Origin: an uncultured Gemmatimonadaceae bacterium
Lineage (GTDB): Bacteria; Gemmatimonadota; Gemmatimonadetes; Gemmatimonadales; Gemmatimonadaceae
DNA: 64,000 nucleotides
Assembly (NCBI GenBank): GCA_963716745.1
Contig: OY970320.1
Location: 2,336,001 to 2,400,000 of the forward strand
Reading direction: 5' to 3'
Part shown: one piece after another, positions 13,480 to 35,152 of the stretch
How the letters are laid out: each line of letters begins with the position of its first letter
Position numbering within the stretch: position 1 is the stretch's first letter
Translations under genes and position numbers: made by a program
The notes under the pieces: generated by a model
Seen by the model: the letters and a program-made list of their open reading frames with translations, nothing else
Told to the model about the DNA's origin: nothing
Database searches by the model: none

Positions 13480-14736
13480 CTAACCGATCGCGGCGGTGCG
13501 CCGGTTGCGGCGCACAGCCTTTCCGGTGAGGCGGACGTTCTGCCGCTCCGCCGCATGACGGAGACAGGCTTGGATGAGCTGGTCGTAATTCATGCCCGCC
13601 GCGCGCGCGGCCTTGGGGAAGCAGGAATTATCGCGCGGGTCGGGAAGGATGCCGGGCAGGGGATTCACTTCGACGACGTTGGGCGTCCCGTCGCCATCAA
13701 GGCGAATATCGATGCGCGACCAATCGCGGCAGCCGAGCACGAAGTAGGCGGCGAGCGCCACCTGCTCGATGCGGGACTGCAGCGCGCTGAATCGACCTGC
13801 GCGGGGCATTCGAAGATCTCGAGCGGATTCTCCGGACGGTCCCAGAGCCACTTGGCCTCGAAGCCGTACACCGGCAGCGCGCCCTCGGGGAGGGCGGCGA
13901 AGTTCATCCCTACTATAGGTAGTACGCGCGCGCCCGAGCCGTTGCCCAGCACGGCACACGTGAACTCGGCGCCGGGGAGCCACTCTTCCACGAGCACGGG
14001 CTGTTGATAGTGCTCGAGCAGGAACAGCGTCTGTTCCGCGAGTTCGGCGGGCGTACGGCAGAAATTTCTTTCAGTTATGCCCTTCGATGATCCTTCGTGC
14101 ACCGGTTTGACGAAGAGCGGCAGGCGGAGCCGGCCGTTCACACCGCGCAGGCGGCGGGTGGTCACGCGCTCGAGAAGGGCGGTGACCTCATGCGCGGCCC
14201 TCACCAGCACAAAAGGGGCGGTGGGCACCCGGTTGTAGGCGAGATATTCTTTCGTGCGCGCCTTATCGAGCCCCATCGCGAGCGTGAACGGATCGGAGCC
14301 GGAGTAGGGAATGCCATAGAACTCGCAGATCGCCGGCACATGGGCCTCGCGATTCGCGCCATTCATCCCTTCGGCAATGTTGAAGACGATATCGGGCTTC
14401 GCGACGCGGAGTTTCTCGGGGAAGTCGGCTGTGGCTTCGAGCCGGATCACTTCACCGACCGCGGCCAAGTGCATCCTCGACCGCATCGATCGTCTCGGCG
14501 CAATCCCACTCAGCGTATTTATCGTTGACCGTGCTGAGGTGGTGAGCGATGACTTCGGGGGCGGGGAAGTGCGAATCGGGATTCGATTCGGCGACTCGCG
14601 AGCGGCGCGACCATTTGCGGCGGCGGCTTGAGATCTCTTCGGCGGGACGCGAGGGGTCGGCGTCAGCTGAGAGGCGAAGAGATGCGGAGTCGGGTTTTTG
14701 ATTGTAGGCGAAGCCTATTCGACTCATCTGCTCCAT
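13480..14736 (-). CDS. D-Ala-D-Ala-ligase-like ATP-grasp enzyme 1 (frameshifts near 14460 and 13800)
   Basis: ORFs 14452-14736, 13665-14486, 13480-13983: YAEWD..ETI, FNIAEG, PYSGSD, FVKPVHEGSSKGI, SRIDIR, EVNPLPG. Confidence 0.88.
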
Positions 14737-14775
14737 GGGGAACGAGCGAACTACTCGCGAGACTTCACGCGGAGA

Positions 14776-14804
14776 AAGATAGGGTGGAAAGAATTTTAGT
14801 GCAA
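14776..14804 (-). promoter_or_regulatory. sigma70-type promoter of the ATP-grasp/GNAT/KamA operon
   Basis: Minus strand TTGCAC-17 nt-TATCTT with an AT-rich upstream tract. Confidence 0.55.
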
Positions 14805-14872
14805 TGATTTCTTTGGAGAAATATTTTCACGCACTACGGCACGACTCACGACATCACTTGCACATCCAACCT

Positions 14873-15500
14873 TGCAGTCAACAGTAAACAGTCACGAGTG
14901 ACTGCCAGTCAACAGTTCACAGTCAACAGCTCACAGAAAACAATTCAGCGTGCGCTGCTGTGATGATGACGATTGGAAAGTTTGGAGGTAGCATGCGCGA
15001 TGCAGATCAGAAGTCATCGGGATCTCATCGTGTGGCGGCGCGCGATGGAGTTCGTGGCGGAGGTGCACGGCCTCAAGCGGAAATTCCCCGCGCGTGAGGG
15101 GAAGGAGTTGTGGAATCAGCTCCTTCGCGCGGCGATGTCCGTGCCCTCGAACATCGCGGAGGGTGCTGGTAGAACCTCTCGCGGTGACTACGCTCGGTTT
15201 CTGTCGATCGCCCGCGGCTCCATACAGGAGGCCGATACTCATCTCGCGATGGCCGTCGCCTTCGGCTACTTGCGACCCGAGGACATCCACCGGGCCGAGG
15301 CACTGAGCTACGAGGTACTGCGGATGCTCACGAAACTCGCGAGCGTTCTCGCCAAGCCCGCGCCCGAATCCGCCACGATGTGAAAAGGGAGGTCGGCCGC
15401 GCACATTGCGCTCGGCCGCCTCCCCGATCCGCTTTCTGTGACCTGTTGACTGTTGAGCTGTTGACTGGCAGTCACTCGTGACTGTTTGCTGTTGACTGCA
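14873..15500. mobile_element. Inverted-repeat element (family A) carrying a four-helix-bundle gene
   Basis: Arms 14873-14939 and 15433-15500 are reverse complements (3 substitutions, 1 indel), built of CAGTCAA-like heptamers; same arms at 24276-24479 without the gene. Confidence 0.7.
15000..15383 (+). CDS. Four helix bundle protein (23S rRNA IVP / Avd-like family)
   Basis: SHRDLIVWRRAM, FP..E, QL.RAAMSVPSNIAEG.GR, FLSIARGS..E signature. Confidence 0.92.
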   Translation: MQIRSHRDLIVWRRAMEFVAEVHGLKRKFPAREGKELWNQLLRAAMSVPSNIAEGAGRTSRGDYARFLSIARGSIQEADTHLAMAVAFGYLRPEDIHRAEALSYEVLRMLTKLASVLAKPAPESATM

Positions 15501-15536
15501 GGGTGAAGCGTGCAGGTGGCGCAGTGCAGCCGTCCG

Positions 15537-16290
15537 TTAAACCTTGTGGTAAAGGATCCTCGCCGCCTCCCGGCGATCTTCCGCCTGATAAACCTCAAAA
15601 TCCCCAAAAAACCCCGGCGCAATCCCCTGCAACACGCGCAACACCGAAATCGCACATCGCCGTATCTCCTGCTCCGCCCCTTCTCCACGACCGCAGTTCC
15701 AGCATCGTCCGCCAAGCTCTCGCATTCCCCGTCACAACGATCTTCGTCTCCGTCGCATTAGGCAAACCGCCCGCGCCGCCTCACGCGCCATCTTCCGGCG
15801 ATGGACCTTGTCCGCGATCCATCCATACCGCTCCATCAACGCCTCCACCATCGCGATATATGCCGCCAACGCCGATTCCATCTGCGCCTTCCACGCAGTC
15901 TCGAGCGCCGCATCCCCGATCACGGCCGGCGGGATCACGAAATTGGCATCGGTCTCGTCAACATACCGCTGCGAGAGCTGCGAATACGCGAACCCCGCCC
16001 GGTGACGCACCAACTCATGCGTCAGCGACCGGCTCACACCCTCCAAGAGCAACGAATAATTCGCATGCTCGAGCACCGATCCATGACCCTGCTTCTTAAT
16101 GTTCTCGAGATAATCCCGCGTCGTCCTGCTCGCCGGATTCTTCTGACTCATATAACACAACCGCCCCGCGAACTCGGCGAGGCGCTCCCCGTCCGTACTC
16201 TCGCCCATCCACTTCACCGGCAAATGACTCGGGCTCTTTGAACGCCGGCTGGGACAGAACGGTTATGACGGGTTCAGCGAAATATTTCAT
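15537..16290 (-). CDS. thyX: Flavin-dependent thymidylate synthase (frameshifted)
   Basis: AGRLCY, GHGSVLEHA, THELVRHR..FAYSQLSQRY, AREAAR; pieces in ORFs 16096-16290, 15732-16223, 15537-15725. Confidence 0.92.
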
Positions 16291-24275: not shown

Positions 24276-24479
24276 GCGGTCAACAGTAAACAGTCACGAG
24301 TGACTGCCAGTCTACAGTCAACAGTCAACAGGTCACAGAAAACGTCTCCACGAACAAACGGGCCTCCCGATCGCTATTCAGGATCGAGAGGCCCGTTCCT
24401 TCGTGATCTGACTTCTGTGAACTGTGAGCTGTTGACTGTCGACTGGCAGTCACTCGTGACTGTTTACTGTTGACTGCAG
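24276..24479. mobile_element. Gene-less copy of the family A element (MITE-like)
   Basis: Arms 24276-24341 and 24413-24479 match the arms flanking the four-helix-bundle gene; interior is about 70 nt. Confidence 0.7.
24357..24397. terminator. Hairpin between convergent thiG and hbd, inside the family A arms
   Basis: AACGGGCCTC...GAGGCCCGTT stem. Confidence 0.55.
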
Positions 24480-31913: not shown

Positions 31914-33938
31914 GTGCCGGCCGACGCGCCGACAAGTGCTGACGGTGCCCTCGCGAACGCTCTCGCGCAAGACCCGCGACCTCTCCAACCGGACTCTCCT
32001 ACGCCGACCGATCGTTCTACGCGCGCCGCGCTCCGCGCCACCGCCCTCGCGCTCGCGCTGTTCGGCCTTGTGCCCATGGCGAACTGGCTGAGCGGCGGGC
32101 ACGCCGTGATCTGGTGGGGCGCTGCCATGCAGGACTGGCTGTTGTGGGGCGCCGTGACCGTGATCGCGGCGCTCGCGATCGCGCGCGCGGGAGGCGAGGC
32201 CGTGAGCGATGCGTGCGCGAACGCTTGGCGGCGTGTGATGGCGCCGAGTGCGCTGCGCTTCGGGGCCATTGTCTTCTGCGTGACGCTGGCGCTGTCGCTC
32301 GCGCTCGCGGCGTACTGCTTCGCACGGCAGCCGCACTCGATCGACGAGATGGAGGCGCTCTGGCAGGCGCGCATCTACGCGTCCGGCCATTTCGCGATCG
32401 CACCGTTCGCGCACCGCGAATTCGTGTCGATGATGAACGTGATCGACTGGGACCGGTGGTACACGCTGTTCCCCGCCGGCGGGCCGGCGCTGCTGACGGT
32501 CGGCATTCTCGCGGGCGCGGCGTGGCTCGTGAATCCGCGTGTGCGCCGCGATCGGCGTGGCGGCGACGTACGCATTCGTGCGGCGCGCGTACGACGAGTC
32601 CACCGCGCGCGCGACGGCGATCGTGCTGGCGCTCTCGCCGTTCTTCCTGTTCATGGCGGCGGGCTACCAGAATCACGTGCCGGCGCTCGCCGCGCTCGCG
32701 CTCGCGCTCGCGGCGCTCGGCGCGTGGCGCACCGCGGCCACGCCGCGCGCCGCGACGATCGCGAGCGTGGGCGTGGGCTTCGCGCTCGGCGCGCTCGTGG
32801 CGATCCGCCCGCTGGACGGCGCGCTCGCGGCGGGAGTGTTCGGGATCTTCCAGGCGGTGAACATTGCGCGGCGCAGCGGCGCCGCGACGTGGAGCTCGCT
32901 GGGCGCGCAGGCGCTCGCGGGCGCGGTGCCGGTGGCGTTCTTGCTGCTCGCCAACGCGAAGAGCACCGGGCATCCGTTCACGTTCGCGTACGGCGTGATG
33001 TGGAGCGGCACGTCGATGGGATTCGGCGCGAGTCCATTCGGCGAAGCGCACACGCCCGTGCGCGCGCTCGTGCTGCTGTCGCAGAACCTGATGCGGCTCG
33101 ACCTGTACATGTTCGAGTGGCCAGTGCCCGGGATCCTGCTGGCGCTGTTGACGCTCGTGCTGCTGCGCGCGCCGAGCGATTGGGATCTGCTCGCGGCCGG
33201 GCTCATCGTGGCATTCCTGTGCGGCTACGCGCTGTACTGGCACGAGGGATTCTGGGTGGGGCCGCGATTCATCTATCCCACGGTGCCGCTGTGGGTGCTC
33301 TTCACCGTGCGCGCGCCGGCGCTTGCTCGCGTCGCGTACGGAGAACGTGCTCTACCGGCGGGCTGCGTTCATCTCTGATCCCGCTGTGCATGGTGGCGAG
33401 CATCGTGATGCCATCCACGACAATGGGCGCGCGCATGCGCGCGGAGCGGTACCACGAATCGCTCTGGCAGCTGCGCACCGACATCGCCGCCGAGGCGCAG
33501 GCGGCGGGACTCAAGAACGCGTTGGTGGTGGTGCACGAATCGTGGGGTGCGCGGATCATGGCGCGCATGTGGGCGCTGGGCGTGCCGCGGCGCGACGCGG
33601 AGATGCTGCTGGCGCAGAGCGACGCATGCGCGCTGGAATTGGCGCTGCTCGTGGAGGAATCACCGCCGGGCGGCGATCCGGCGGGACTCGTGGAGCGTCT
33701 GCGCGCCGCGACGCCGCCGAGCGAGCGCGCCGCGCTCGCGCCGCGGCCGGACATCACGTCGGACGGGACGCTGCTGTTCTCCGATCATGGACCGTTCACG
33801 AAGCAATGCGCGGAGAATGTGCTGGCGGACAGCGCGGGGACGTCGTTGTACCCACCGTTCCTGGCGCAGAATCGGGTGACGCGCGAGGGAGAATTAGGAG
33901 GGGACGTGATATACGTGCGCGATCTTGGGCGGGCATAA
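31914..33938 (+). CDS. Polytopic membrane glycosyltransferase (GT-C, ArnT/PMT-like), frameshifts near 32535 and 33365
   Basis: Early DE motif (SIDEM), many TM helices, IRPLD, GPRF; adjacent GT2. Confidence 0.7.
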   Translation: MPADAPTSADGALANALAQDPRPLQPDSPTPTDRSTRAALRATALALALFGLVPMANWLSGGHAVIWWGAAMQDWLLWGAVTVIAALAIARAGGEAVSDACANAWRRVMAPSALRFGAIVFCVTLALSLALAAYCFARQPHSIDEMEALWQARIYASGHFAIAPFAHREFVSMMNVIDWDRWYTLFPAGGPALLTVGILAGAAWLVNPRVRRDRRGGDVRIRAARVRRVHRARDGDRAGALAVLPVHGGGLPESRAGARRARARARGARRVAHRGHAARRDDRERGRGLRARRARGDPPAGRRARGGSVRDLPGGEHCAAQRRRDVELAGRAGARGRGAGGVLAARQREEHRASVHVRVRRDVERHVDGIRRESIRRSAHARARARAAVAEPDAARPVHVRVASARDPAGAVDARAAARAERLGSARGRAHRGIPVRLRAVLARGILGGAAIHLSHGAAVGALHRARAGACSRRVRRTCSTGGLRSSLIPLCMVASIVMPSTTMGARMRAERYHESLWQLRTDIAAEAQAAGLKNALVVVHESWGARIMARMWALGVPRRDAEMLLAQSDACALELALLVEESPPGGDPAGLVERLRAATPPSERAALAPRPDITSDGTLLFSDHGPFTKQCAENVLADSAGTSLYPPFLAQNRVTREGELGGDVIYVRDLGRA

Positions 33939-34037
33939 TCTCGCGCTGAGAAAATCGTACGGGGATCGGGTTTGGTATCATTACATCCCGCGTGCATCGC
34001 GCCACCGACTCGAGTCCGGTGTTCGTCAAGTACCACT

Positions 34038-34390
34038 AACGGCGTGAGTCGCGACCCGAACGACGTGACTCGTACCCCGAACTCCGTGAGTACCGAGTCG
34101 TGCGTGGACCAGATTGTGAGGCGTGACTCGCACCCCGAACCCCGTGAGTCGCGACCCGAACGTACGTGAGTCGTACCCCGAACCCCGTGAGTACCGAGTC
34201 GTGCGTCGAACTGACCGTGAGGCGTGACTCGCGACCCCGACAGTCCGTGAGTCGACTCACGACGTCGTGGGTTGGACTCACGACGTTCGGGGTGCGACGC
34301 ACGCAGTGTGAGGCGGTACGACGCACGACTCGGTACTCACGGAGTTCGGGGTACGAGTCACGGCGTTCGGGGTGCGACGCACGCCGTTCG
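34038..34390. repeat. Family F element: two about 100-nt direct units plus an inverted unit, built of 21-nt subunits
   Basis: CGTGAGTCGCGACCCGAAC.. / CGTGAGTACCGAGTCGTGCGT at 34043 and 34143, inverted at about 34275-34388. Confidence 0.9.
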
Positions 34391-34393
34391 TAG

Positions 34394-35152
34394 TTAGTCG
34401 CGCACGAGCCGCGCCTGCGCTCCGCTCGTCCACGCCGCCGCGAGGATGTGCCAGAATGCCGCCACTCCATCCCGCCACGTGATCTTCTTCCCCTCTGCGT
34501 ACGTGCGCCCATGGTAGCTGATCGGCACTTCGTACACGCGCGCGCCCATCTGTGAGAGGCGCGCGACGATCTCCGGCTCGATGCCGAAGCGCTCGCGCGT
34601 GAGGTGCATGATCCGGAAACTCTCGCGCGTGAAGGCTTTGTAGCCCACTTCCATGTCGGTCAGGTTCAGGTTGGTGAACATGTTGGACATGAACGTGAGC
34701 GCGCCGTTGCCCATGCGGTGGTAGAAGTACAGCACGCGATGCGCGCCGGCGCCGCCGAAACGGGTGCCGCACACGGCGTCGGCGTGTCCGTCCAGAATGG
34801 GCGCGATCAGCGCGGGAATGTCGGTGGGATCGTACTCGAGGTCGGCGTCCTGGATCACGACGATATCGCCCGTCGCCTCGGCGCGTGCCGTCTGCACCGC
34901 CGAGCCTTTGCCGCGATTCTGCTCGTGCCGCGCGATCTTCATCGTGCCGCCCGACGCTTCGGCGCGCTTGGTCAGCCGCTCGAACGTGCCGTCCTTCGAA
35001 CAATCATCCACCGCGACGATCTGCAGGCTGACGCCGTCGCTCTTGAGGCGCGCGCCGAGCGCCGCGAGCGCATCGAGCGTGCGGTCGATCGTCGCGGCTT
35101 CGTTGTAGCACGGGATCAATACGGAGAGTGTGACCGGAGATGGGCGGATCAA
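34394..35152 (-). CDS. Glycosyltransferase family 2 (DPM1-like)
   Basis: IPCYNE, VDDCSKD, NRGKG, QDADLEY, TDMEVGYK, EGKKITWRDG. Confidence 0.92.
   Translation of the reverse strand: MIRPSPVTLSVLIPCYNEAATIDRTLDALAALGARLKSDGVSLQIVAVDDCSKDGTFERLTKRAEASGGTMKIARHEQNRGKGSAVQTARAEATGDIVVIQDADLEYDPTDIPALIAPILDGHADAVCGTRFGGAGAHRVLYFYHRMGNGALTFMSNMFTNLNLTDMEVGYKAFTRESFRIMHLTRERFGIEPEIVARLSQMGARVYEVPISYHGRTYAEGKKITWRDGVAAFWHILAAAWTSGAQARLVRD

Follow-up and report, generated by a model that had tools for sequence, protein, structure and literature searches.

REP and REPIN sequences, together with their RAYT genes, form a repeat system in which a gene is flanked by a repeat in inverted orientation, and further copies of the repeat are dispersed through intergenic DNA. 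A genome can hold several such families, with one gene-bearing copy for each. Positions remain largely the same among relatives, and the RAYT gene product is a Y1 (HUH) transposase. Another gene enclosed by repeats is found in the 23S rRNA intervening sequences of Coxiella burnetii and Leptospira where, according to the accessible part of PMC4990558, an ORF lies inside terminal inverted repeats with heptamers beside it. The same portion of that paper gives the Coxiella heptamer as GACAGAT, which contains ACAG, describes the insertions as ~430-630 nt long, sporadic in their distribution and cleaved by RNase III in the stem, and states that they replace the tips of existing helices. Tandem heptameric intergenic repeats have been described in Xanthomonas (GGGAATC) and Nostoc (GGGGAYT); the Xanthomonas heptamers occur at 70-75 sites in convergent inverted pairs, 90% of them between corresponding ORFs in two species (PMC4692102, accessible sections). 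These sections treat both heptamers as quadruplex-forming simple repeats, contain none of the terms ‘intervening’, ‘S23’ or ‘hypothetical protein’, and draw no link to a four-helix-bundle protein.

Here we describe a locus in a 64,000-nt stretch of DNA (the window; positions 2,336,001 to 2,400,000 of contig OY970320.1) from the genome of an uncultured Gemmatimonadaceae bacterium (G000; 3.29 Mb in one contig, estimated completeness 89.8%). Its layout is that of REP/RAYT and its content that of the rRNA intervening sequences, with a defining feature of each missing: there is no Y1 enzyme, and the locus does not lie in rRNA, in an organism in which RNase III was not found. The plus-strand gene (window positions 15000-15383) encodes a four-helix-bundle (4HB) protein of 127 amino acids. 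The reading frame opens with ATG at 15000, is preceded by GGAGG at 14985-14989 and closes with TGA at 15381-15383; an alternative TTG start can be read at 14973. In profile searches, the protein scores 109 bits against PF05635 (23S_rRNA_IVP; cut-off 33.8) and 103.4 bits against TIGR02436 (cut-off 24). AlphaFold2, supplied with an alignment of 32 family members, predicts four helices with a pLDDT of 95. The best structural match of this model in Foldseek is 2gsc (Xcc0516 from Xanthomonas campestris; 46% identity, TM 0.86/0.93); 2rld (BT_0352; TM 0.74/0.87), the DGR protein Avd (4dwl; TM 0.73/0.86) and DGR ribonucleoprotein entries match as well. Both the profile scores and the predicted fold, which agrees with that of solved members, place the protein in PF05635, in line with the four-helix-bundle, IVP/Avd-like identity proposed by a sequence-only reading of this locus that preceded our analysis. 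Because the crystal entries 2gsc and 2rld contain five chains each, the protein is probably an oligomer. We know of no catalytic activity in this family. Avd shares the predicted fold and, as the 4HB protein might be, is a small basic helical protein that acts on nucleic acid with a partner enzyme; unlike in the Avd systems, however, a reverse transcriptase and a template/variable repeat pair are absent here, and the two proteins are only 12-13% identical.

The gene is enclosed by two inverted arms, and both the ORF call and an inverted-repeat scan confirm the earlier placement of the gene between arms of heptamers. The left arm core (14872-14940; nhmmer E 5e-21) consists of ACAG+3 heptamers around the core ACAGTCACGAGTGACTGCCAGTC, and the right arm core (15432-15500; nhmmer E 1.3e-18) is its complement. 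The scan resolves the pairing into an ungapped outer block (14855-14919 with 15454-15518; 65 nt, 86% complementary) and an inner block (14919-14939 with 15433-15453; 21 nt, 95%). By eye, ~5 mismatches and 1 indel separate the two 69-nt cores, so that the arms are indeed complementary and their earlier description as ‘near-perfect’ was slightly generous. In an alignment of 56 arms, ACAG/CAG recurs invariantly each 7 nt while the intervening 3 nt vary. The internal palindrome CAGTCACGAGTGACTG, which had been noticed before, lies in the left arm at 14889-14904 with its partner at 15469-15484; its second half is degenerate in many members of the arm family. RNA folding of 14826-15545 adds an outer extension on each side: the left one (14836-14871), whose outer segment CACTTGCAC... 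is also found in other members of the arm family, pairs imperfectly with the right one (15501-15537), which reaches the thyX stop codon (TTA on the plus strand at 15537-15539). This whole 720-nt stretch has a folding energy of -390.8 kcal/mol, compared with -279.8 +/- 8.0 kcal/mol in 20 shuffles (z = -13.9), a gain of 111 kcal/mol, with weaker pairing out to ~14836 and ~15537.

Between arm and start codon, the 5' spacer (14941-14999, plus strand) carries, besides the GGAGG, a GTGATGATGACGA motif that is common to the sister species’ cassette. GATG/GATGATGA-like motifs seem to recur in the interval between 5' arm and start codon in many cassettes, relatives’ included. A promoter-like site, TTCACA-17-AACAAT (14916-14944, plus strand), overlaps the innermost part of the left arm and is a weak consensus match only (1 found, against 0.3 expected in shuffles). 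Directly past the stop codon, the RNA fold forms a G+C-rich stem-loop followed by CGATCCG (15387-15424), the motif that also closes the loops of most gene-less copies described below.

To the left of the cassette, at 14736, begins a minus-strand operon of ATP-grasp, ATP-grasp/GNAT and lysine-2,3-aminomutase-like genes; to its right, at 15537, ends the minus-strand thyX. The cassette is thus wedged between the promoter side of the ATP-grasp operon and the 3' end of thyX, as the sequence-only reading stated, and both neighbors lie on the strand opposite to the 4HB gene. The ATP-grasp gene and thyX (13480-14486 and 15537-16223) are each split into two frames in G000 and intact in the sister species G041, and the splits are probably sequencing indels.

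Set against the 23S intervening sequences, as far as the available text of PMC4990558 describes them, the cassette shares the protein family, a long stem of terminal inverted repeats enclosing the ORF, and ACAG-bearing heptamers. It differs in being intergenic and antisense to both neighbors, in having arms of 69-100 nt instead of 28 bp, and in that its arms belong to a dispersed gene-less family. The location in a 23S or 16S rRNA helix that characterizes an rRNA insertion is not seen, since the cassette sits between ATP-grasp and thyX, and the single 23S gene of the genome (genome positions 231259-234217) has a normal length of 2959 nt against a model of 2925 positions. The layout that the cassette has in common with the Coxiella and Leptospira elements (PMC4990558, same portion) and its very stable predicted RNA stem would both suit an RNA-level intervening element, in which RNase III cuts the stem and the gene-bearing loop leaves a longer transcript. 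Yet RNase III was not found: PF14622 and TIGR02191 yielded 0 hits in G000, with matches in the control bacteria (8-9), and in the order, PF00636, which also matches control bacteria, was found in 0 of 21 genomes, of which 15 have a completeness of 90% or more. The readable text of PMC3071783, a paper on RNA-decay enzymes, holds no word on RNase III in Gemmatimonadetes. Both neighbor genes, moreover, run antisense to the 4HB gene. Finally, G-T and A-C mismatches in the stems of 30 elements are balanced (128 and 148, respectively), and therefore nothing marks one transcribed strand. We consider the RNA-level reading extremely unlikely. That an order in which no RNase III was found includes a genome packed with 60-100 bp stems may be more than a coincidence.

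The main new fact, missed by the sequence-only reading, is that the arms are a dispersed family. That reading had suggested searching the genome with the arm for full and empty copies, and a profile search of the 3.29 Mb returned 69 arm hits that form 30 convergent pairs. Among these are 28 gene-less hairpins, the cassette with its 491-nt loop, and one half element near ordinary ORFs. The gene-less hairpins measure 155-230 bp and have loops of 19-91 nt; the loops are self-complementary and most end in GATCCG, like the cassette interior. One of them lies in the window at 24276-24478 (genome 2360276-2360478; 69-nt loop, found with nhmmer). The half element is the pair at genome 1724263-1726513, which stands beside two long minus-strand ORFs. 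In four DNA metagenome runs with contigs of ~150-450 nt, a joint that skips 14941-15429 proved to be a gene-less copy and not an empty site, and the metagenome pieces on the arms derive from other copies of the arm family. No RNA run was found to cover 14700-15700. Covariation within elements is weak: the two arms of one element (0.759) hardly exceed arms taken from separate elements (0.734) in similarity, and the own partner ranks first in only 1 of 28.

In these respects the locus resembles REP/RAYT: the flanking repeats are dispersed, gene-less and intergenic. The flanked gene, by contrast, encodes a PF05635 four-helix bundle and not a Y1 transposase, and the arms, which consist of 7-nt units in tandem, are much longer. 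The analogy to REP/RAYT drawn in the sequence-only reading therefore holds for the architecture, with one gene-bearing copy and 28 gene-less hairpins, and fails for the enzyme. The gene-less hairpins also match the Xanthomonas and Nostoc repeats, as these are presented in the sections of PMC4692102 that we could consult, in their tandem 7-nt units and inverted pairs.

The cassette is not the only one of its kind in the genome. PF05635 is found at seven places. A profile made from the family alignment classes four of these genes as canonical, assigns two others, both intact, to a divergent subfamily, and leaves one copy that is frameshifted. Each of the seven is flanked by inverted arms of 39-76 nt, 427-548 nt apart and different in sequence from place to place, and each of the seven arm types is again a genome-wide hairpin family. 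An inverted-repeat census counted 288 short hairpins in about 11 families (sizes 54, 45, 39, 30, 23, 19, 19, 18, 15, 10, 3 and 2). Each of the seven 4HB genes belongs to a different one of these families, and six of the seven largest families include a 4HB copy. This is the distribution expected if each family had its cognate gene, as in REP/RAYT, but random placement puts seven genes in seven families 7.7% of the time (p = 0.077, not significant), and four families (23, 18, 15 and 10 members) have no 4HB copy. By a best-frame call of gene strands (a GC-phase call was of low confidence, and a strict GC3 finder covered 69% of the genome), 90 of the 288 hairpins lie between convergent, 136 between tandem and 50 between divergent genes.

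The divergent subfamily (genome 1007705-1008385, 3094939-3095591 and 2641110-2641792, the third being the frameshifted copy) encodes proteins of 141-148 amino acids with an N-terminal extension, which score about 41-43 bits against the family profile; their arms are non-heptameric and have the motifs GTACCGCT and GGCGTGAGT in common. Several further candidates were discarded: the apparent cassettes at genome 818661, 820180 and 968191 are each two complete adjacent hairpins around an ordinary gene, and the inverted repeat at 955772-956317, with arms of the L007 family, shows no 4HB signal.

The association of gene and arms extends well beyond this genome. A 4HB homologue at E <= 1e-10 is present in 67 of 101 sampled genomes of the family Gemmatimonadaceae. 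Flanking inverted repeats accompany 22 of 29 family homologue loci, with Smith-Waterman scores of 34-110; the threshold was set at 34 or above, and 102 shifted control windows reach at most 30 (one armed locus, L022, comes from the unpublished genome G034). Three of the seven loci that lack arms lie at contig or locus ends. Of 26 cassettes, 22 have a best arm period of 7 nt, two a period of 6, and one each a period of 8 and of 9. G exceeds C in the sense-strand 5' arm of 20 out of 22 cassettes, which ties the orientation of the gene to the polarity of the arms. Protein identity and arm similarity are correlated over the 26 cassettes (Mantel r = 0.25, p = 0.001), and they stay so when the orthologous pair is left out (r = 0.21, p = 0.003). 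A search with a single protein returned nine loci. Among seven testable loci in named records of other phyla, four score at least 34, two score 31 and one 22; the named records sampled belong to Bacteroidales, a deltaproteobacterium, Omnitrophota, Vicinamibacteria, Nitrospiraceae, Alcanivorax and a second Gemmatimonadaceae genome. In the open literature, to which our search was confined (subscription-only papers fell outside it), we found no description of cassettes of a 4HB gene with arms outside rRNA. Our observations thus point to a protein-plus-hairpin repeat system outside rRNA that is new to the literature searched.

Comparison of the insertion site among relatives dates the cassette. 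ThyX is present in 23 of 25 related genomes searched. All five genomes of the genus with data (G000, G041, G101, G102 and G103) carry a 4HB cassette at the ATP-grasp/thyX junction, and none of 19 thyX loci outside the genus does. In nine of these 19 loci the ATP-grasp gene and thyX are still neighbors, only ~35-225 nt apart and free of periodic arms (one locus, L056, is from the unpublished genome G007), and these loci provide the clean empty site that the sequence-only reading had proposed to look for. The five cassette proteins of the genus form one clade, and this clade together with the empty outgroup junctions indicates a single acquisition followed by inheritance; by this comparison, the cassette is a genus-specific insertion. 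As the outgroup junctions show neither arms nor gene, an arms-only intermediate is missing in 9 of 9 cases, and arms and gene appear, as far as the sample shows, to have been gained together. Gene and arms are thus one inserted unit. In support of the discrete unit that had been postulated, arms flank all seven PF05635 hits and the 22 family loci, and the unit is absent from this site outside the genus. A gene held in synteny by relatives that lack the arms would have spoken against it; instead, arms are found on every syntenic copy. Within the genus, cassette proteins of different species are 40-55% identical, compared with 83-87% for ThyX. The cassette ORF is intact in four of the five genomes. 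In G041, the 4HB gene (L011:1300-1740) has two frameshifts within ~90 nt, its neighbors are intact, and its arms are a minor family variant.

The repeat unit of the arms differs among these orthologous cassettes, and the dispersed hairpins differ with it. At the thyX site, G000 and G102 have ACAGTCA-type heptamers with the core ACAGTCACGAGTGACTGCCAGTC, G041 has a variant of this core, G101 has (RTAGTCC)n heptamers and G103 has (GACGACAGTC)n decamers. Counted as overlapping pattern hits, which are not copy numbers, (RTAGTCC)x3 occurs 174 times in G101 and 0 times in G000, G102, G041 and G103; (GACGACAGTC)x2 occurs 90 times in G103, once in G101 and 0 times in G000, G102 and G041; and the 23-nt core of G000 occurs 49 times in G000, 67 times in G102, 28 times in G041 and 0 times in G101 and G103. 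Reversed-pattern controls gave 0 hits, except for 5 in G103 with the G101 pattern. In four species of the genus, these counts show that the dispersed hairpins share the repeat unit of the species’ own cassette. The exception is G041, where the cassette has the minor arm variant (8 hits; also 7 in G102 and 4 in G000) and most gene-less copies have the major core (the 28 hits above). This matched divergence is the strongest new result of the analysis. The protein need not be its agent, since the arm of a cassette that simply belongs to a family homogenized by some other process would diverge in the same matched way.

The most likely account, in our view, is a hairpin-repeat system of which this locus is the gene-bearing copy, with a gene that encodes a family-specific binding protein. 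We hold this account only tentatively, because the binding and any role in spread are what we infer. The 4HB protein would be an Avd-like nucleic-acid binder, probably an oligomer, that recognizes, in single-stranded or hairpin-extruded arms, the units that repeat every 7 nt in its own family. Such recognition may keep the arm family alike, and it may seed or replace hairpins at intergenic slots beside stop codons, drawing on host replication and repair enzymes. The mechanism would probably operate without RNase III, reverse transcriptase or a Y1 transposase, as none of these was found in the genome. Speaking against the protein as the agent of the family, hairpins persist in G041 although the 4HB gene is frameshifted; with its two frameshifts and its gene-less copies of the major type, this genome indicates that hairpins evidently persist without an intact gene. 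Further points that weigh against the account are the weak covariation within elements, the excess of uncompensated over compensated changes given below, the 7.7% chance of finding seven genes in seven families, the four families that lack a 4HB copy, and a protein family with no known catalytic activity.

Turnover of the hairpins is slow, with positions that mostly hold between sister species and families that swap at fixed intergenic slots. Along a 20-kb stretch that is collinear between G000 and G041, seven of eight hairpins keep their place and family, and the eighth slot holds a hairpin of another family. Taken with the same cassette site in five genomes, this means that any mobility is slow. 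Of the pairs that differ between orthologous arms of the two species, 89 are broken and 34 still paired after a single change, and 40 are still paired and 34 broken after a double change, with 503 unchanged, so that uncompensated changes exceed compensated ones (89 single broken against 40 double paired). The arm cores are conserved as sequence and variation is confined to the 3-nt spacers, which fits a binding site rather than mere pairing. In the mini-hairpins at the loop tips, by contrast, the sequence differs between orthologues and self-complementarity is kept.

The constancy of position would also suit a reading in which a small selfish or neutral 4HB gene is a passenger lodged in the loops of host hairpins and its protein does not act on the arms; the hairpins themselves would serve as two-way transcription stops, as protectors of transcript ends, or as replication or domain boundaries. 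Hairpins do occur in every kind of intergenic setting, often where two genes converge (the 90 of 288), some loops resemble terminators, four families do without a 4HB copy, the hairpins of G041 outlast its broken gene, and rRNA intervening sequences likewise replace existing helix tips (PMC4990558, in the part accessible). A passenger would, however, be expected to leave arms-only intermediates, which are absent at the nine outgroup junctions, and it would not account readily for an orientation tied to arm polarity, for protein similarity that tracks arm similarity, or for arms around the gene in unrelated phyla with unrelated units. We regard the passenger reading, one of two main rivals, as rather unlikely.

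Conservation of the arms at the sequence level is equally expected if each 4HB paralogue is a domesticated regulator that acts in trans on the transcripts of its own hairpin family, through termination, read-through or stability, in which case the hairpin sets would be regulons and not selfish copies. One paralogue per family, the intact ORF in four of five genus genomes despite ~50% identity, and the binding of RNA by Avd in the DGR ribonucleoprotein (PDB 8ube and others, judged from entry titles) agree with this. The genes flanking 29 family members, on the other hand, show no evident common theme, and families swap at one slot between close relatives, which would be odd for a regulon. Regulation in trans, the other main rival, is to our mind unlikely.

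The long terminal inverted repeats, the many short copies and the TAA/TTA by many ends are what a cargo-bearing MITE would display, in which a DDE transposase acting in trans would move the hairpins and one copy would carry the 4HB gene as cargo. But EF-Tu, pilin-like and RibD_C paralogues account for all repeats that reach 400 bp with an identity of at least 85%, and so there is no multi-copy IS. In the genome, PF01797 (Y1 transposase) has 0 hits, inspection by eye showed no clear direct target duplication, and eleven families with different ends would need many transposases. We judge this origin very unlikely. PF00078 (reverse transcriptase) likewise has 0 hits; with the 23S gene far off, this agrees with the sequence-only reading, which had noted no rRNA, reverse transcriptase or transposase nearby. 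Given the estimated completeness of 89.8%, these absences mean ‘not found’ and are not proof; with RNase III, reverse transcriptase, Y1 transposase and multi-copy IS all not found, the usual mechanisms are unlikely. Taken as a whole, the interpretation offered by the sequence-only reading is partly supported.

If the binding-protein account is true, it would link three orphans of long standing: the function of PF05635/TIGR02436, a very large protein family; the origin and spread of rRNA intervening sequences; and the excess of heptamer palindromes in the intergenic DNA of bacteria. A wider and more doubtful proposition, which we think has a rather small chance of being right, is that IVP-family 4HB paralogues each read their own 7-nt unit and direct host enzymes of repair or replication to write, homogenize and replace hairpins genome-wide at fixed stop-codon slots, with no nuclease, transposase or reverse transcriptase of their own; rRNA intervening sequences would then be one special landing site. 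The genome offers a good test bed: its 3.3 Mb contain seven cassettes and eleven hairpin families, gene-bearing and gene-less copies changed their repeat unit together in sister species, and RNase III, reverse transcriptase, Y1 transposase and multi-copy IS were not found.

Several slots show the swapping of families directly. One that is occupied by the RTAGTCC type in G101 holds a CCGGGAACCG-type hairpin in G000, and another, with a decamer hairpin in G103, holds a large hairpin of a different family in G000 (window 33920-34445). The latter is a ~400-nt composite hairpin of the ACGGCGTGAGTACCGAGTCGTGCG type with a folding energy of -321 kcal/mol. At a convergent-gene slot (G000 2849013-2849131, corresponding to L095:1182-1437 in G102), G102 carries the cassette’s arm family where G000 carries a different one; the flanks are 92-93% identical, and both genes have their final codons, stop codon included, within the replaced segment. 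An outer motif, AACTRC...GYAGTT, marks 67 and 66 of the 288 hairpin ends (23%), compared with 1.7% of random positions, and it does so in several families. In the G000/G102 slot, the abutting gene takes its TAA stop codon from this motif, and in G103 the arm repeat of the cassette runs into the stop codon of thyX.
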